Assembly: GCA_963677485.1 (NCBI GenBank) | Contig: OY781964.1 | Coordinates: 2,528,001 to 2,592,000 of the forward strand | Source of the DNA: Armatimonadota bacterium | GTDB taxonomy: Bacteria; Armatimonadota; HRBIN16 | Length of the DNA: 64,000 nucleotides | Direction of reading: 5' to 3' | In this document: positions 1 through 63,668 of the stretch, piece by piece | Layout: every line of letters begins with the position of its first letter | Position numbering within the stretch: position 1 is the first letter of the stretch | Position numbers and translations under genes: made by a program | The notes under the pieces: model-generated | The model's input: the letters and a program-made list of their open reading frames with translations, nothing else | Database searches by the model: none | Told to the model about the DNA's origin: nothing

Positions 1-258
1 ACCGGTGTCAGCGGGGCTTTGAAGGCACCTGGGCGTGCGACGGGGTTCACGCTGCGAAGCAAGAAGCCCGATACAGGTGGCCCCACGGTGCTGCGATGTG
101 AACTCGACCGGAAAGATCCGTCGTCGGTGATCCTGTGGTATTCGCCGGTGATCAAGGATCCCGTCAGCCTGTATTACGGTGCCGGTATCAACCCGTTTGT
201 GAATGTCGTAGATGATAAGGACATGCCCGTTCCCGCATTCGGCCCCGTGCCCGTGTAG
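1..258 (+). CDS. C-terminal fragment of a probable sialate O-acetylesterase-family protein (runs off window start)
   Basis: Ending 'LYYGAGINPFVNVVDDKDMPVPAFGP' resembles SiaE-type C-termini; frame open from the window edge, stop at 256-258. Confidence 0.55.
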   Translation, partial: TGVSGALKAPGRATGFTLRSKKPDTGGPTVLRCELDRKDPSSVILWYSPVIKDPVSLYYGAGINPFVNVVDDKDMPVPAFGPVPV

Positions 259-283
259 GGAGTGTGCCGTGCCTGTATCGTTT

Positions 284-410
284 GTAGGGGCGGGGTCACC
301 CCGCCCCATTTTCCGCCGGTCTGTCTGTCTGAACCACGGATGACACGGATGACACGGATAGGTTCGGATGGAGAGGGAGGCCAATCAGGAGATTGGCGTT
401 CCCAGGGGGG
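284..410. repeat. Composite intergenic repeat (GTAG-headed REP hairpin + CACGGAT 9-nt module + GCCAATC hairpin)
   Basis: gtaggggcggggtcaccccgcccc, then tctgaaccacggatgacacggatgacacggat, then gggaggccaatcaggagattggcgttccc; the latter modules recur near 3461, 8550 and 63219. Confidence 0.85.
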
Positions 411-454
411 CACAGCATGCCGTGTTTGTTACCGTTTGTAGATACTGTGGCTTT

Positions 455-460
455 TGTCAA
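455..460 (-). promoter_or_regulatory. -35 box (TTGACA) of the circle-junction promoter; its -10 (TACGCT) is at 2244-2249
   Basis: Joining the ends over one CT gives TTGACA-17 bp-TACGCT pointing into the bridge RNA. Confidence 0.85.
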
Positions 461-712
461 GTCCCCAGGGGCAAATCTGGGGATTTGGACCTGAATATCA
501 GACACTGGCTCTAGACCACGTAGAACAACGTTAATGTGATGTTTGTGGCATATAGACCAAACCTGGATCCGCGACAGAAACAGGCTCAGATGGCATCAGT
601 TGGTCCGTAGCACCTCACATGACGCTCGGAGTCGCGAACGGACGTGCGACATCTTCGTGGCTTCGAAAGATATCGTTATGCTTCGATGCGTGCTATCGGC
701 AGACTGCCGCAG

Positions 713-2005
713 CTAGGATACTGGTGTCAGAACCCTCGGTTTGTTGCCCACCCGACTGCGCGATGGCCGGTTTCGGGATGCGGGCCGACCACCGCCGGCA
801 GGAGTGGGCTCATTGGTGGGATTTCCATCCACGCATCCCCGTCTTGGAACGCTCACGTCCAGCCCAGGATCATTGCCTACACCGGCTATATCATGGGCCG
901 CTCCGGCACGATCCTGGACATGTCCGTTCGCGTCGGTCAGCGGTTGCTGGTTGGCCGCATTTGAAGCTTGTTCGATGCCGAAGTTTGGATCATATGGCTG
1001 ACGGCTGATTAATACCGACCACATGAGCACCAGCTGCTTGCGCATGATTGCGCACCGGACAACTCGCTTGGACTTCGGTTTCTTATTGGGATTCTTTACC
1101 AAATTCGGATGCTGCAGTTCCTTCACGAAGTCGTGCATGCTCTGGCCAAGCTTTTTCGACTTACCGTTGACCATCTTCACCACAGTGCTCGATCCACAGT
1201 AGAGTAATGTCCGCATATATCGGTCACCCATCTTGGATATGGAGCCGTCGTATGTCTTGCAGCTTCCTGACCGTTGCGGGCAGGGGTTCATTCCGAAATA
1301 GCGCGCGACCGCTTTCGATGTTTCAAATCGTTTAGCATCACCGATTTTCGCAAGGAAATAGCTTGCTGTGACGTCGCTGATACCCGGAATGCTCTTCAGC
1401 AGAGCCATATCTTCGGTCATCTGCGGTGAACTCATCACAAGCTCTTTGATCTGAACATCAAGCTTTTTGATGCCCATGTCATGAAAAGCGATCATCTCGT
1501 CCAGCACTGTGCTCCGCGTAAGCCGACAGCTTTGGCGCTGGGCGATCGCCTGTCTGTGTTGCACCAGCATACGGCGGTCATTGGTGTAACCAATAAGCGC
1601 ATCATAGCATGCTAGACGAGGGACATAGAGTGAGACATTGTGACTTTTCACATAGTCAGCGATTAGCACGCTGTCAGAGCAGTCCGTCTTTTGTTCCCAG
1701 CCTTTGGCTTTGCGGTGATAGAGAACCCGTTTTGGCTCCAGTTGGACAGCATCGTGCTGGTGCTCGTAGAGGTAATCAAGCAGCGGTCGGCTGTAAGGCC
1801 CGGTGGCTTCAGCCGCATACAAGGCGGGAGTTCGGGTAAGCTTCTTCACCCATGACAACAACTCCTTGTATCCGGCCTTGTTGTTCTTGAACTCCTTATG
1901 GTCTATCGGCTTGTGCGATGAACCTAATACAGACGCGTCAAACGTCAATTTCGAGATGTCGATCCCGACATAATGGATGTAGATTTTGTCTTCAACTTCG
2001 TGCAT
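713..2005 (-). CDS. IS110-family DEDD recombinase/transposase
   Basis: YVGIDISK, AEATGPY, KTDCSDS (DEDD) and GMNPCPQRSGS (catalytic Ser); ATG at 2005 follows GGAG; low-complexity tail after QPYDPNF. Confidence 0.95.
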   Translation of the reverse strand: MHEVEDKIYIHYVGIDISKLTFDASVLGSSHKPIDHKEFKNNKAGYKELLSWVKKLTRTPALYAAEATGPYSRPLLDYLYEHQHDAVQLEPKRVLYHRKAKGWEQKTDCSDSVLIADYVKSHNVSLYVPRLACYDALIGYTNDRRMLVQHRQAIAQRQSCRLTRSTVLDEMIAFHDMGIKKLDVQIKELVMSSPQMTEDMALLKSIPGISDVTASYFLAKIGDAKRFETSKAVARYFGMNPCPQRSGSCKTYDGSISKMGDRYMRTLLYCGSSTVVKMVNGKSKKLGQSMHDFVKELQHPNLVKNPNKKPKSKRVVRCAIMRKQLVLMWSVLISRQPYDPNFGIEQASNAANQQPLTDANGHVQDRAGAAHDIAGVGNDPGLDVSVPRRGCVDGNPTNEPTPAGGGRPASRNRPSRSRVGNKPRVLTPVS

Positions 2006-2040
2006 GTGGTAATCTCCAGTTGGTAGTGATTGATGGTGCA

Positions 2041-2237
2041 ATCAACCAAATCAGCCTAGCGAACACGGGGTTTTCTCCCAAGATACTGTTCGATATGGGT
2101 TGATTGGGAGAAGGATGCCTATCTACGTCACGGTGTTTTCCACCAGGGGCGGTTCCGGCATCCAATCCTTCTCCTTCACCCCCAGCTAAGGGGTGAGATT
2201 AGCTCCCCGACTGCTTTTGGTGTCCGGGGAGCTCACC
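2041..2237 (-). ncRNA. Bridge RNA of the IS110 element (5' hairpins, target-binding loop, donor-binding loop)
   Basis: Target loop GGAUGCCGG-AACCGCCCCU-hairpin-GUAG-AUAGGCAUCC; donor loop ACAGUAUCU-hairpin-CUAG-GCUG; same architecture as IS621. Confidence 0.88.
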
Positions 2238-2379
2238 ATATATAGCGTACTAGGGGCGGTTCGCGAACCGCCCTTCTTGCGTCGCGCCGCCCCGATTATT
2301 ACCGCAGGGAATGCTTGACGGGTGGATTGAACGAATTACCGGCATGTTCGTATCAACCAATGTAGATGGGGTGTATACC

Positions 2380-3285
2380 ATGGACTATCTTGCAGGAACC
2401 GAGTATCCGCATTATGCACCTTCAATTTCGACCGATAACCTTTTATCGCAGGTGTTAACCCATCGGTGTGATTCTCGCTATTACGATCAAGCTATGTGTG
2501 CCTTGAAATACCGTGGTGATGATCAAGTGTATGAAAGCGCACTGCATCTATGCCACAGTGTAAAGCCTCGAGAACGAAGGGTTGGGTATGATATTCTGTC
2601 GGAATTCGGACTGCCCTATTACAAGCGCACGATGGACATCCTGCGTGTTTTGTTAGATGCGTTGCCATCAGAACACAACTCAGATTGTATCATTTGGATC
2701 GGGAGTGCAGTCAGCAGCCACCTGCTGGGATGCAGACACAACACTGATGAGGTCTTTCACGAGATGCCGGACCGAATACAAAACCTATTCGCACTGTCGA
2801 GCAACCGGTCGTCGTACCGGCGATATGCTGTCGCGAAGATACTCGGTCGATTTCTGGACGGAGGCGAAATGTCACATAAGGCCACTGAAGTTTTGATTAC
2901 TATGACACATGACAATGATACGGATATCAGGGTTAGGGCCATTGATTCGTTGGGATTAAGTGAGGATAACGACCCGGATCGTATTGCTGTTATCGATCAT
3001 CTGTTGTTATTGGCGCAGGACGATGAGCCTTTAGTCCGTGCTGAGGCAATCTTTTCACTGCAAAATCGGGACTATCCGGGTGTCGGCGCACTCATCGCTC
3101 AAGAGATCAGTAAAGGGCATGTATGCACTTCTACACTGAGAGCCGCAGAATATTTGGCGGATAATGAACTCTGTGCTGTGTTGAAGCTAGCCGACCCAGG
3201 ATCGGTTGATAGTGAATTCTGGTTGGAAAGAGCGATCAATTCATGCTGTAACACCGGTAAGGAAGTTGATGATTCTACTGACTAA
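2380..3285 (+). CDS. HEAT-repeat protein
   Basis: Repeated helical motifs (DNDTDIRVRAIDSLG, DDEPLVRAEAIFSL); start uncertain (ORF open from 2311). Confidence 0.75.
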   Translation: MDYLAGTEYPHYAPSISTDNLLSQVLTHRCDSRYYDQAMCALKYRGDDQVYESALHLCHSVKPRERRVGYDILSEFGLPYYKRTMDILRVLLDALPSEHNSDCIIWIGSAVSSHLLGCRHNTDEVFHEMPDRIQNLFALSSNRSSYRRYAVAKILGRFLDGGEMSHKATEVLITMTHDNDTDIRVRAIDSLGLSEDNDPDRIAVIDHLLLLAQDDEPLVRAEAIFSLQNRDYPGVGALIAQEISKGHVCTSTLRAAEYLADNELCAVLKLADPGSVDSEFWLERAINSCCNTGKEVDDSTD

Positions 3286-3315
3286 GCGGCTATCAGTCCT
3301 TCGATACCCACATCA

Positions 3316-3805
3316 TTGGCGACGGGTTCCGGCAACCCGCTGAAGCGGGCCTTGTCACCCATCGCTAATCATTACCGGTCCGCTGAAGCGGACGTAGGCG
3401 CCGCCCACGACGGGGAGGGCGATCGCCGATCGCCCCTGCGAGCCACATTGGCGCGGTATCTGTCTGAACCACGGATTACGCGGATGGCGCGGATGGGTTC
3501 GGATGGAGAGGGAGGCCAATCAGGAGATTGGCGTTCCCAGGGGAATACCCTCTTTGCGTCTTTGCGTTAAAGTACCCGTCTTCGCGTAAGGCCATACCAA
3601 TCTGTGTCATCTGCGTAATCTGTGGATGTATTCATCCCATTCGTGTTCATTCGTGGTTTCCCTGGAACCAGACCGGCGCGGTATCTGTCTGAACCACGGA
3701 TTACACGGATTACGCGGATGGGTTCGGATGGGAACATGCCCTAATCTGTGTAATCTGTGGATCTACCTTACCCTTCGCGCCTTCGCGTCTTCGCGTGAGA
3801 CATCC
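3316..3805. repeat. Composite intergenic repeat cluster between convergent genes
   Basis: ccgctgaagcgg hairpins, gggcgatcgccgatcgccc, two CACGGAT modules, and aatctgtgtcatctgcgtaatctgtgg, attcgtgttcattcgtgg and cttcgcgccttcgcgtcttcgcgtgag modules. Confidence 0.85.
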
Positions 3806-3812
3806 CCAAACC

Positions 3813-5759
3813 TTACGGCAAGACGACCTTCACGGTCTCGCCCTCCGCCAAGACCGCATGGTATACCACCTGCTGACCTTCCAGCACATCCACCACCAAA
3901 CGATCGGCATTGCGACTGAGCGCGATATCAAACCTGCGGCCAAACGCCCGGATGCTGCGTAGTGCCATGCTGTTCCAGCCCTCCGGCAGATGGGGTGTGC
4001 ATTCAAAGGCGTGAAGACCCACAGGGCGTATGCCAAAAAGCCCCTCGGTGATCACACGGCAATATAGCGCGCTCTCCGCCGACAGTTGGCGCTGACCGCC
4101 CTCGGGCCACGCCTCCACCGGATACGGCACGTGCTCACCGAGTAGCCTGCGTTGTGAGTATTTGCGCAGGTAATCCATCCCCAATACGGTCTCTCCCGAG
4201 GCAAACACTCCCCTCAGCGCATACAGGGTCGCCCTGTCCCAAAAGGTCTCCTTACCCGCCTCGGTCGCCAGACCGTCATCGGTCCAAAGTCGGGGCGAAA
4301 ACAGGGCCGCGATCGTACCGCTCTTGCGCTCCATGATACCCATCGTCAATGGGATACATACCCAGGCACGCAGGCTGCTGTTGCCGTCATAATAGCGGTA
4401 GGTGTGAAACCCCTCCACCTGGGCTCCGAAGTATCTCTCGATCGCAGTGCGTAGTGCTGCAGCCCGGTCTCGATATTCATTGACCAAAGACTGAGGCTGG
4501 CCCAGCTCCTCACCCAGCCAGACCGCTGAGCGCAGCGCGTCATAGGTCAATGACGAGGTGCAGAGGTTCGCCTTGCCTGCCGGAAATCGACCCTCCAACT
4601 CGTCGCTGTCGGATTCAACCACTCCCTGCTCGTTGGTCTTGCGACGGCAGAACTCCAGACACCACTTCACAATCGGCCACATCTCGCCGGCGATCTTCTT
4701 GCTGCCAGACACCAGCGCATACCGCGCGGCACCGTAGGCGATCATCGCCGCATCACCGCGGTCACCCGCGCCGTTCCAGATGTCGGTTCCCTCGGCGATG
4801 ATGGAGCTGGGCACAGGCTTGTAGTCGGGCTTCATGAACCGCGCGAACTGCCGGTAACAAACCAGCGCCGATTCATTACCGGCCGCATCGCCCAAGAATG
4901 GAAAGAAGGGACTGGCATACTCCGCCTGATCATTGGCCCAGATCGCGGCGTAGTAGGAACCACCACCTGGGGCGTGCATCAGCCCGCCTTTGGTTTCAAA
5001 AATGCTCTCGGCGGCCCGCAGTTTTGTGAAGTCGAACTCCCGGCTGAGCACCGGTTCGGGGCACTCAAACCGCAGCTTCTGGAAGGTAGCGCTGACGTAA
5101 TCCTTCCGCGCCCGCTGTTCTGCTTTTGGGTCGATCTCAATGGGCGGTTCGCCGGCACGCCGTCCGGTGAAGACCAGGCTGAACTCCACCGATCTACCCG
5201 GCTGCAGCTTCACCGACTGACATCCAACGGCTTTCGCGCTCAAGCTGTATACACCGTAGACACCGTTCTGCGCCTCAGTCTGGTGTGCCTGCTCATACGG
5301 GCTGATGACCACCATCCGCATGCGATTGGACCTGTTTGTGATGGTGCAGCGCTCGATCACTGCCGCCTTGCGGGTGGAGGGGAACAGCACCCGCGTGAGC
5401 TCCAGATCATCACCGACACGGCTTTGGATACTCACCATGCCGCGGATGCTCACCACCGCTGGCTTTTCGGCAGGTATCGGCAGACCGTCCACGCTGATCG
5501 GAGGAAATACCTCCAACCCATAGCGGTGTGATAAGCTGGCGTGCGTGTCATTCGGGATGGTGCGCAGCATCGGCCATACGATCTGCCTGTCCAGCAGCAG
5601 CCGGCCCTGCTCATCAACGCCGTAACGCAGAATGAGGGACACTCTGCGTCCGCTCATTTCGATGTGGTCAGAATGGGCTCCCTGGACCTGCCATTCGATC
5701 GCGCCATCTGGCTTCATCTGCCAGCGAGTATTCGGCAACTGTGGTGATGGTTGTTTCAA
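3813..5759 (-). CDS. Six-hairpin (alpha/alpha)6 glycoside hydrolase-like protein
   Basis: 648 aa; YYAAIWANDQAEY, SDSDELEGRFP and VEAWPEG..QLSAESALY motifs. Confidence 0.7.
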   Translation of the reverse strand: MKQPSPQLPNTRWQMKPDGAIEWQVQGAHSDHIEMSGRRVSLILRYGVDEQGRLLLDRQIVWPMLRTIPNDTHASLSHRYGLEVFPPISVDGLPIPAEKPAVVSIRGMVSIQSRVGDDLELTRVLFPSTRKAAVIERCTITNRSNRMRMVVISPYEQAHQTEAQNGVYGVYSLSAKAVGCQSVKLQPGRSVEFSLVFTGRRAGEPPIEIDPKAEQRARKDYVSATFQKLRFECPEPVLSREFDFTKLRAAESIFETKGGLMHAPGGGSYYAAIWANDQAEYASPFFPFLGDAAGNESALVCYRQFARFMKPDYKPVPSSIIAEGTDIWNGAGDRGDAAMIAYGAARYALVSGSKKIAGEMWPIVKWCLEFCRRKTNEQGVVESDSDELEGRFPAGKANLCTSSLTYDALRSAVWLGEELGQPQSLVNEYRDRAAALRTAIERYFGAQVEGFHTYRYYDGNSSLRAWVCIPLTMGIMERKSGTIAALFSPRLWTDDGLATEAGKETFWDRATLYALRGVFASGETVLGMDYLRKYSQRRLLGEHVPYPVEAWPEGGQRQLSAESALYCRVITEGLFGIRPVGLHAFECTPHLPEGWNSMALRSIRAFGRRFDIALSRNADRLVVDVLEGQQVVYHAVLAEGETVKVVLP

Positions 5760-6904: not shown

Positions 6905-7345
6905 CGGGCCGATCGCCGATCACCCCAACGCGCCAGACCACGCCGGTCTGTTTGTCTGAACCACGGATTACGCGGATGGCACGGATGGGTTCGGATGGAG
7001 AGGGAGGCCAATCAGGCGAAAAGTGTTCGCAGGGGAATTCACTTTGCGTTTTTGCCCCTTTGCTATGAAAATATCATTCGTGCCAATTGCTGGTCTCCAA
7101 GGAACCAGACCGGCGCGGTCTTAAGCCTTCTGCAGCCGTAAGCGTACCGCCAGACCGCCCCAGACATAGGCAATCACCGCGAATAAAAGACCCTTCGCGC
7201 CTTCGCGTCTTCGCGTGAGACCTCCCGCCACCGGTCATTACCTAATCTGCGTCATCTGTGTAATCTGTGGATGTATTCATCCCATTCGTGTTTATTGGTG
7301 TTCATTCGTGGTGAAATGCTCCCCCTTTGCGCCTTTGCGTTGAGA
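6905..7345. repeat. Composite intergenic repeat cluster
   Basis: Same modules as 3316-3805, plus a half copy of the agaccggcgcggtc...cagaccgcccc element. Confidence 0.8.
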
Positions 7346-8499: not shown

Positions 8500-8727
8500 A
8501 CTCCAGGGTGATCGCCGATCGCCCATACGTGCTAGACCGCATGGATGATTGTCTGAACCACGGATTACGCGGATGGCACGGATGGGTTCGGATGGAGAGG
8601 GAGGCCAATCAGGAGATTGGCGTTCCCAGGGGTATCGCCTTCGCGTGAGACCATATCAATCTGCGTCATCTGCGTAATCTGTGGATGTATTTATCCCATT
8701 CGTGTCTATTTGTGTTCATTCGTGGTT
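8500..8727. repeat. Composite intergenic repeat cluster
   Basis: Modules shared with 6905-7345, in largely the same order. Confidence 0.8.
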
Positions 8728-62144: not shown

Positions 62145-63101
62145 ATGAAACTGCGTCAAACCATCACCATACTCGCGATCATCGCCTCAAGCAACTTGGC
62201 CGCATGGCTGTTGTTTCGAGAGCAAAAGATCCCGACGCAGTGGATCGGCCCCAGCGCATTTTGTGCTGTGACACTGGGCTCACTGATCATCGCGCTCATC
62301 CTGGCGGGAATACAAACCCGATTGGACCGGCTCCACGAACCGGCAGAACGTCGAGAAACCCCTCCAGACGATAACCCATGGACCGCCCAGGTGATGCTGT
62401 TTGGCGGGAGCGACCGCGAAGCGTTGCAGGCAGACCTGTACACGGCCAGCAAACTGGGTGCCGTGAAAGTCGTCGGGAAAAGCATGGAGCTCACTCCGGC
62501 CTCCGCCGAGGTATTGCCCGACCGAATTCAACGGCTTCTGCAGCCGCTGCAGGGCGGTCAGAAGAGCCACTTTGTCTCCACATATGAACTGATTCGCAGA
62601 AAGGCCGCACGGCAGGCAGGCAAGCAGATCAACTATACGGCCAGCTATGTGATGCCAGTGGGATTGTTCGTCCTGATGATGGGGTTAGCGATTGCCGCTC
62701 CTTTGGGTGAAACCACAAAGCCCCTGGTTACTCTACTGAGCTGGATCATCGCCTCCGCACTGTATTTGTCTATTCACACGCTTACCAGTTGGATGATGTG
62801 GACGGCGAAACCCAGGATTGTGGAGGGCCTAACCGCTGGATACTGCGTCTATGTGGTTGCAATGGCGGCGATGCAGGCCCACTGGCCAGACCTGATGCCG
62901 TTCTGGTTCCTGGGATTTATGGCCTCTGTGCTGGGTGGCATCTGGCCGCTCTGCTGGCGTGTGAAGGGCGCTCACCAGAGTGTACAGATGCAGTGGACGG
63001 CCTATTGGAGCTATCTGCGCAGTGTGGCGGCCAGCAATGACCCGGCGGTGCTGGAACGCCACAAGGCGATGCTCATCGCGCTGCATATGCGCCGGATGTA
63101 G
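62145..63101 (+). CDS. Hypothetical multi-pass membrane protein
   Basis: About 6 hydrophobic segments; RBS AAGGGG. Confidence 0.7.
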   Translation: MKLRQTITILAIIASSNLAAWLLFREQKIPTQWIGPSAFCAVTLGSLIIALILAGIQTRLDRLHEPAERRETPPDDNPWTAQVMLFGGSDREALQADLYTASKLGAVKVVGKSMELTPASAEVLPDRIQRLLQPLQGGQKSHFVSTYELIRRKAARQAGKQINYTASYVMPVGLFVLMMGLAIAAPLGETTKPLVTLLSWIIASALYLSIHTLTSWMMWTAKPRIVEGLTAGYCVYVVAMAAMQAHWPDLMPFWFLGFMASVLGGIWPLCWRVKGAHQSVQMQWTAYWSYLRSVAASNDPAVLERHKAMLIALHMRRM

Positions 63102-63668
63102 GGGCGGTCGGCGGTGTATGCCCTGGGCGTGGAAACCACGCCCCTACACGTCGCGCGTGCCTGTCTGAACCACGGATTACACGGATTACACGGATAGGAA
63201 CGGATGGGACGGTTATATGTCTGAACCACGGATTACACGGATGGCACAGATAGGTTCAGGCGGAGAGGGAGGCCAATCCGGAGATTGGCGTTCCCAGGTG
63301 AATGCCAACCTTGCGCCATTGTATCTCTGCGCCTTTGCGTTAGAATCCCATCCGTGTCATCGAATTCATCCGTGTAATCCGTGGTTCAGACGAATCCTCG
63401 GCGCGGTCTGGCGGATAGCCCAAGCTACTAGCCCACACACCCACGATTAGGGAAAGCCTGCAAGGAGGTTCCGTGTAGATACTGTTATTGACTCGCAAGC
63501 GTTGCCTAAGTCCGGGGCGGTCTGTGCGCAGGCTAGCGGCTACAGACTGCTCAGGACCGCGCCGGTCTGGCGGATAGCCATGATAGATCGGTGTCGGGAA
63601 CAAGACCGGCGCGGTCTATGGACAATGGCGATTGCCAGCGTACCGCCAGACCGCCCCGGACATAGGCA
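63098..63668. repeat. Composite repeat cluster (REP, CACGGAT inverted pair, REPIN-like element)
   Basis: Perfect 25-bp inverted repeat 63219-63243/63367-63391; fold-back at 63502-63668. Confidence 0.88.

Follow-up and report, generated by a model that had tools for sequence, protein, structure and literature searches.

A recently active IS110-family element of the bridge-RNA type beside palindromic repeats in an Armatimonadota genome

IS-A and its insertion site

The DNA analysed here, referred to as the window, is a stretch of 64,000 nucleotides (nt) from contig OY781964.1 of an Armatimonadota bacterium (assembly GCA_963677485.1, positions 2,528,001 to 2,592,000 of the forward strand); the source genome is a single contig of 5.22 Mb. 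Near its beginning, the minus strand of the window carries an IS110-family insertion sequence at 440-2251, which we term IS-A. The element is 1812 bp long, counting one CT core, and runs from the right donor AGTAC, which begins at 2251, to the left donor ACAGTAT (448-442) and the CT that follows it (441-440). Within it lie a left end of 246 nt with a predicted RNA fold, a recombinase gene (713-2005, minus strand) and a long right end, and beside it stands a repetitive extragenic palindrome (REP). We observed the ends, target and copy number of the element, the identity and covariation of its guides with DNA, the fold and covariation of its RNA, and the catalytic residues of its enzyme. IS-A is a recently active IS110 element of the bridge-RNA type, the mechanism of which is already known.

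Twelve full-length copies of IS-A, 99-100% identical, are present in the genome. At the left junction, all 12 have ...CGCCC-CT in the flank and AGTACGC at the start of the element. At the right junction, the element ends with ACAGTAT-CT in 12/12 copies; the next two bases, which form the right target (438-439, minus strand, in the window copy), are AC in 11 and AT in one, and the flanks diverge beyond them. According to an earlier note on this DNA, different ends or targets among the other copies would have spoken against its reading; comparison showed identical ends in 12/12 copies and CT-AC on the right in 11/12. A sub-terminal inverted repeat around the donor matched at 1 to 2 of 3 positions, judged by eye only.

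CT is found at both junctions of every copy and once in empty REPs, which read CGCCC-CT-AC; terminal inverted repeats are absent, as in the IS110 group. The copy junctions and the empty REPs together indicate a pre-insertion site consisting of the left target, CT and AC, with CT duplicated in the IS110 pattern. On this evidence, the left copy of the CT core in the window lies at 2252-2253 (minus strand). The adjoining REP palindrome GGGCGGTTCGCGAACCGCCC occupies 2254-2273 (minus strand), and its 3' arm provides the left target ACCGCCC (2260-2254). Ten of the 12 copies are located at the 3' foot of the 20-nt palindrome GGGCGnTTCGCGAAnCGCCC, and the other two at different short G+C hairpins. In the genome, 37 loci carry this palindrome; where no element is present, CTAC usually follows.

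We also examined four sequencing runs (X1, X3, X6 and X15, of 23 listed), all as assembled contigs. In the two runs that contain the organism, a repeat contig of 1820 nt spans 439-2258, and its depth relative to the flank (117 vs 10 in one run, 154 vs 13 in the other) corresponds to about 12 copies. No empty site was seen among the assembled contigs of the four runs. Two contig joints, 371-2254 and 408-376, belong to other repeats. X6 also yielded a 94%-alike contig. An orthologous empty site was sought in same-genus genomes and not found. The locus is rearranged there: a simple orthologous empty site is lacking because window 261-3685 is missing in the same-genus genome.

The recombinase and the state of the copies

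The recombinase gene encodes 430 amino acids (aa) and is preceded by a Shine-Dalgarno sequence, GGAG, at 2017-2014. Pfam analysis of the protein revealed PF01548 (N-terminal RuvC-like DEDD domain, E 1.8e-21) and PF02371 (C-terminal Tnp domain, E 2.7e-21). NCBIfam model NF033542, "IS110 family RNA-guided transposase", gave 176.6 bits against a cut-off of 140; its profile ends at residue 336 of 430. Among solved structures, the IS621 recombinase ranked first (8wt6; E 1.8e-27, residues 10-274) and ISCro4 second. D16, E66, D108, D111 and S246-G247 align opposite IS621 D11, E60, D102, D105, S241 and G242, for which catalytic roles are described in PMC11208158. Close protein relatives (P0001-P0005) share 61-94% identity with the IS-A recombinase.

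Base 1378 of the window (element position 874) is A in the window copy only, and changes residue 210 to serine. The other 11 copies, 7/7 aligned relatives and IS621 have glycine at this place, the second G of the motif IPGIG. All four runs read another base here than the window assembly. Because S210 falls in a conserved motif, the window copy's own enzyme may be impaired. Two further copies, at different loci (1369177-1370996 and 1871157-1872973 of the source genome, G000), share a 16-bp frameshifting deletion equivalent to window 1552-1567, with ends and RNA region intact. The occurrence of the same deletion at two loci indicates that a defective copy moved, or was converted, with enzyme supplied in trans.

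These observations raise the possibility that the window copy is non-autonomous: with an S210 recombinase, it would depend on the nine consensus copies for enzyme while still supplying RNA and ends. S210 is unique among the 12 copies and four runs at a position that is glycine in all seven relatives and IS621, and the two frameshifted copies at separate loci show that mobilisation in trans occurs. However, the IPGIG motif is not among the five catalytic residues, and S210 could be a single-base assembly error, as the runs, possibly the source data themselves, read the other base. We regard this reading as possible but rather unlikely; it concerns the window copy and its enzyme.

The left end encodes a predicted bridge RNA

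The 246-nt left end was predicted to fold at -88 kcal/mol (z -3.3), which none of 200 shuffled sequences equalled. It begins with two 5' hairpins, which are followed by two long stems that each contain an internal loop and an inner hairpin. In an alignment of related left ends, 95.9% of the cells of this 34-pair structure were paired, and 7 pairs were changed on both sides, a result matched by 0/500 shuffles; slid controls gave 34-43% pairing. The covariation is supportive rather than strong because there are five sequences, four of them close.

All parts of the RNA lie on the minus strand. The first 5' hairpin (2201-2235) has 4 compensatory pairs, changed on both sides between lineages, and the second (2176-2196) retains its pairing potential in the sister lineage described below, with no covariation; the pair of 5' hairpins proposed in the earlier note was thus recovered. 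The first long stem, with its internal loop and inner hairpin, is the predicted target-binding loop (2107-2174), the helices 1-3 of which were 100% paired with 4 double changes. The second, defined by fold and alignment, is the predicted donor-binding loop (2039-2106).

Each loop contains two candidate guides. The left target guide AACCGCCCCU is located at 2145-2154 (the canonical 9-mer is 2153-2145), and the corresponding DNA, AACCGCCCCT at 2154-2145, equals the flank at 2261-2252. The right target guide GUAG (2123-2126), invariant in 5/5 aligned left ends, pairs with CTAC, the minus-strand reading of GTAG at 438-441; C2127 would lengthen it to pair with CTACG. In the donor-binding loop, the left donor guide ACAGUAUCU (2081-2089, ACAGTATCT as DNA) equals the element tip 448-440. 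The right donor guide CUAG (2056-2059) is complementary to the junction CT-AG, as a circle would read ...ACAGTAT-CT-AG.... All four pairings had been claimed in the earlier note, and each held when we re-read the sequence. Guides of 4 nt mean little alone; when related left ends are aligned, however, these guides always fall at the same positions.

The published layout has a nine-base left target guide, a four-base right target guide and the core in every pairing (PMC11208160). In IS-A, loop 1 is complementary to both target strands and loop 2 to both strands of the donor junction, and the core is included in both. Under the handshake rule described in PMC11208158, the AU at 2121-2122, directly after the right target guide, is the likely handshake guide of the target loop; it is complementary to T and A at positions 7 and 6 of the donor, and not to the two C residues at these positions of the target. 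After the right donor guide comes GC (2055-2054), the G of which could form a handshake with C7 of the target.

We estimated how often such matches arise by chance. In the 64-kb window, ACCGCCCCT occurs three times (0.72 expected from shuffles), as does ACAGTATCT (0.19 expected). By arithmetic from these window counts, the chance of finding the respective 9-mer in one particular 246-nt strand is about 1.4e-3 and 4e-4, or jointly ~5e-7. A covariance model search, which the earlier note had suggested as a check, was performed with the two loops. It revealed exactly 14 places in the genome, 12 in IS-A copies and 2 in copies of the sister lineage IS-B, and no orphan RNA; the score of the loop region was the same in all 12 IS-A copies. 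Matches to this model were present in 4 of 101 genomes, including that of the window.

Guides change together with flanks and ends in related lineages

IS-B is represented by two copies in the same genome (G000 1296596-1298386 and 2667677-2672038), the second of which is interrupted by a 2.57-kb IS21-family element (IstA/IstB). A same-genus genome (9 copies) and metagenome contigs L099 and L100 contain relatives of IS-B, and the two-loop covariance model revealed others in two same-phylum genomes (L137 and L138). IS-B has the same architecture as IS-A, including the two 5' hairpins and a hairpin in the right end, and the same left donor, core and right target. Protein identity of IS-B and its relatives to IS-A is 41-42%. 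The IS-B lineage differs from IS-A in having the right donor TGTAT with its guide as in IS621, the -10 hexamer TATGCT, and proteins of 387-400 aa.

For comparison of guides we defined seven element types: IS-A, IS-B, the same-genus lineage (8/9 copies), L099, L100, L137 and L138. The 7-nt variable part of the left target guide is ACCGCCC in IS-A and CGCGCCC in IS-B, with GTCATCC, CGTGCCC and GTGGCCC among the same-genus and metagenome relatives of IS-B; GCCGGCG and TGGTACA complete the set. On average, 6.0-7.0 of the 7 positions of each guide matched the flank of its own element type, and the true pairing of guides with flanks was the only one of 5040 permutations to reach this sum. The right donor and its guide also change together. 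The six other types end with CT-TGTAT and have (A/U)UACAAG in the donor loop, ACAAG being the guide in IS-B, whereas IS-A ends with CT-AGTAC and has the guide CUAG.

Occupancy of target sites follows the left target guide

Sites of the form NNNNNNN-CT-AC were sorted by number of mismatches to the 7-nt left target guide. Perfect 11-bp sites were occupied in 6/9 cases. Occupancy fell steeply with mismatches, to 5 of 149 sites with one mismatch, 0 of 584 with two and 1 of 1986 with three. One of the five one-mismatch copies also has AT rather than AC on the right. A G+C-rich hairpin is present at all 12 occupied sites. Of the three empty perfect sites, one has an imperfect stem and another, an unoccupied ACCGCCC-CT-AC in the window itself (63098-63108, minus strand), does not stand at a palindrome foot. 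This pattern recalls the stem-loop requirement of ISPpu10, in numbers that are too small to carry the comparison.

These results bear on the idea that the "target guide" is a mere REP fragment carried in the left end, as a passenger or a recombination scar, with no RNA guidance. REPs are abundant, CGCCCCTAC being present in 228 copies in the genome, so that uniform odds overstate how surprising it is to find a REP-like 10-mer near one. However, the 10-mer occupies the same loop position in seven types, and its differing sequences track seven flanks, some of which are not REP-like. The stems flanking the guide are kept by compensatory changes, and site occupancy depends on the match to the guide. 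We consider a passenger fragment very improbable.

An equally improbable alternative, which we rejected, placed the crossover core at TAC rather than CT (left CCCCTAG-TAC-GCT, right CAGTATC-TAC-N), with a rarer REP variant ending CCCCTAGTAC as the target: TAC is indeed present at both junctions and four REP-associated sites without an element read CGCCCCTAGTACG, but GUAG and CUAG pair with CTAC and CTAG, which the TAC-model target and donor junction do not contain, CT alone is common to the sister-lineage junctions (CT-TGTAT on the left, CT-AC on the right), empty REPs mostly read CTAC, and the four solo sites match the left end over only 6 to 8 nt before diverging. These element-free CGCCCCT-AGTACG sites, which resemble a left junction, are located at G000 2010704 (+), 2851061 (-), 1990835 (+) and 2382956 (-), and may be REP-tail variants or scars.

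Predicted junction promoter

A -35 box, TTGACA, is located at 455-460 (minus strand), 6 nt before the left donor, and is kept in all relatives examined. At the other end of the element, a -10-like hexamer, TACGCT (2244-2249, minus strand), overlaps the right donor. According to the earlier note, circularisation creates TTGACA-17-TACGCT. The geometry was confirmed: joining the ends places TTGACA (460-455) 17 nt from TACGCT (2249-2244). Judged by eye, the -35 box matches at 6/6 positions, whereas TACGCT matches TATAAT at 3/6 and would fail the promoter-scan tool's own criterion.

IS-B and its relatives have TTGACA, 17 nt and TATGCT across the junction, with three different spacers. The layout TTGACA-17 nt-TA..CT is kept in three lineages with different spacers. 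Because the -10 hexamer shares bases with the right donor, replacement of TGTAT by AGTAC weakened the predicted -10. Such a donor change illustrates a natural constraint on donor reprogramming. A short G+C hairpin lies just upstream of the -35 box (463-482, minus strand); in the sister lineage, its place is taken by a different hairpin of 11 bp. The ISPpu9 study (PMC12288879) notes that dependence on a junction promoter is not universal among IS110 elements.

A further pairing was noticed in a sister-lineage left end (L014 321-328), where the first 7-8 nt (GTATGCT) can pair with AGCATAC (~557-565) over the ribosome-binding site. This pairing could mask translation in read-through transcripts. 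In the window's element, pairing of this type is broken at 2/8 pairs.

Proposed cycle of IS-A

For junction transcription, circle formation, handshake bases and chemistry, the cycle we propose follows the published model of IS621. IS-A would be excised, or copied out, as a circle. The circle would bring the right end (TTGACA) and left end (TACGCT) to a distance of 17 nt and thereby create a promoter, from which about 200 nt of the left end would be transcribed. The resulting bridge RNA would bind the DEDD/Ser recombinase. Its first internal loop would pair with both strands of ACCGCCC-CT-AC at the 3' foot of the REP palindrome, and its second with the circle junction ACAGTAT-CT-AGTAC. Strand exchange would take place at the CT core.

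Several observations weigh against this interpretation. The junction promoter has the weak -10 described above; a promoter scan of the integrated IS-A copy found no promoter-like site, and neither a transcript start nor a circle junction was seen among the assembled contigs of the four runs. The right donor guide is contiguous over 4 nt only, longer pairing requiring a 2-nt bulge and a G-T pair. One copy stands at a site with three mismatches to the left target guide, and the enzyme of the window copy may be impaired by S210. A search of window 1-4000 against Rfam yielded no hit at E up to 1. The RNA libraries include contigs from a relative that overlap portions of the gene and of the left end; their presence does not prove transcription. 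The single such contig over 1886-2275 is from a 95%-alike relative and extends 24 nt into the flank; because of these 24 nt, it looks like read-through or DNA. With these points taken into account, we assign a probability of about 0.9 to bridge-RNA-guided recombination as the mode of movement of IS-A, the guides matching its own ends and its REP target.

Comparison with known IS110 elements

Publication of the bridge-RNA mechanism dates from 2024, and bridge RNAs have already been predicted for thousands of IS110 elements. IS-A therefore adds no new principle. The supplementary tables of predicted bridge RNAs in PMC11208160 might already include IS-A or its relatives.

Escherichia coli IS621 (PMC11208160, PMC11208158) shares with IS-A the two protein domains, with DEDD and Ser-Gly aligned; a left-end RNA in which the target loop precedes the donor loop; 9-nt left guides and a 4-nt right target guide; the CT core; a REP target ending CT-AC; and a -35 box in the right end. 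The AU after the right target guide corresponds to A81/U82 of IS621 (PMC11208158). The left donor ACAGTAT-CT is identical to that in the IS621 donor oligonucleotide given in PMC13396178, which contains ACAGTATCT followed by TGTAT. The earlier note was right on this identity, and also in that the target guides differ: the wild-type IS621 target is ATCAGGCCTAC (PMC11208160), with ATCAGGC as left target in place of ACCGCCC. IS-A further differs in its right donor (AGTAC vs TGTAT, with the guide changed), in having two 5' hairpins rather than one, in a right end of ~550 nt rather than a short one, and in a protein of 430 aa vs 326, the match being confined to residues 10-274. A blastn search of IS-A against 5426 E. 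coli genomes gave no DNA match. A Brenneria relative was used as a stepping stone to IS621; only other IS110-family genes were matched, the best being a pseudogene, and this line was dropped.

Two Pseudomonas putida elements show partial likeness. ISPpu10, as described in bioRxiv 10.64898/2026.03.19.712850, inserts beside a G+C-rich stem-loop 5' of the base-paired target. ISPpu9 with Ssr9 (PMC12288879) is an IS110 element in REPs that bears, downstream of its recombinase gene, an additional RNA-like module. According to that description, Ssr9 also occurs alone and moves alone, whereas the IS-A hairpin was found only inside elements.

The value of IS-A lies in a clean natural data set: in the 12 near-identical copies, all sites of which can be read, occupancy responds to guide match in a graded, dose-dependent way. 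Two sister lineages living side by side in this genome have the left donor, core and right target in common, while the left target has been re-written and, once, the right donor together with its guide. The frameshifted copies that moved point to action in trans. With a recombinase distant from that of IS621 and a different target, IS-A would be a further orthologue for genome-engineering tests. Its right-end hairpin is the sole feature for which we found no published counterpart, in a survey that included no search aimed at such hairpins.

The long right end and its hairpin

The right end of IS-A measures 273 nt when counted from the stop codon, or about 540 nt when counted from the end of the family profile (residue 336/430). 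The 246-nt left end agrees with the long left end of the IS110 group, and the right end departs from the group's short right end; the two traits are descriptive rather than mechanistic (PMC11208160). In L137 and L138 the right end is about 20 nt long. Their proteins end after a YDPNF motif, no more than a few codons from the -35 box; past this motif, IS-A and IS-B have ~550 nt more.

The reading frame continues for 45-90 codons into the first part of this ~550-nt segment. The tail showed no third-position excess in the annotated frame: for one pair, counts by codon position were 4, 10 and 5, vs 28, 23 and 75 in the core. By arithmetic, DNA identity between the two lineages is about 70% in the tail vs about 53% in the core. 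One antisense frame of the tail had a higher synonymous share (30/75), with a stop in L099 and 23 variable columns only.

Inside the last part of the reading frame lies a conserved, clade-specific RNA hairpin of 130 nt and 47 pairs (825-954, minus strand). Its sense strand folds at -65 kcal/mol with z -4.0, vs z -1.2 for the antisense strand. In the alignment, 94.9% of cells were paired and 6 pairs were changed on both sides (0/500 shuffles); three invariant G-U pairs are possible on the sense strand only. Matches to a model of the hairpin all lay inside these elements, 14/14 in this genome and 9/9 in the same-genus one; of 101 genomes searched, 2 contained it. No published counterpart was found, and no literature search was aimed at right-end hairpins of IS110 elements. 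We put forward, with considerable doubt, that the ~550-nt right end is a third functional module acquired by this clade, the 130-nt RNA hairpin being its conserved core. The hairpin could be a cis-acting RNA that controls synthesis or stability of the recombinase or takes part in excision. If so, the bridge elements of the IS-A clade would possess a second RNA part that does not act as a guide.

The string CCAGTATCCTAG at 724-713 (minus strand), which overlaps the stop codon, resembles the donor junction CAGTATCTAG with one extra C; CTGACA stands just upstream of it. This likeness is probably due to chance, because the aligned part of the sister lineage does not contain the string.

Surroundings of the window copy

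In the same-genus genome G001 (969704-969789), nothing is present of the segment that separates the upstream gene from window 3686. The missing segment contains REPs, IS-A and a HEAT-repeat gene (2311-3285). A dispersed repeat of ~83 bp is present at window 326-408, 3461-3543, 6953-7035, 8550-8632 and 63218-63298. It gave 142 blastn matches in the genome, with a median identity of 90.5%, lies beside REPs, and is abundant in the same-genus genome too. The window copy of IS-A is flanked by this repeat on one side and by the REP on the other.

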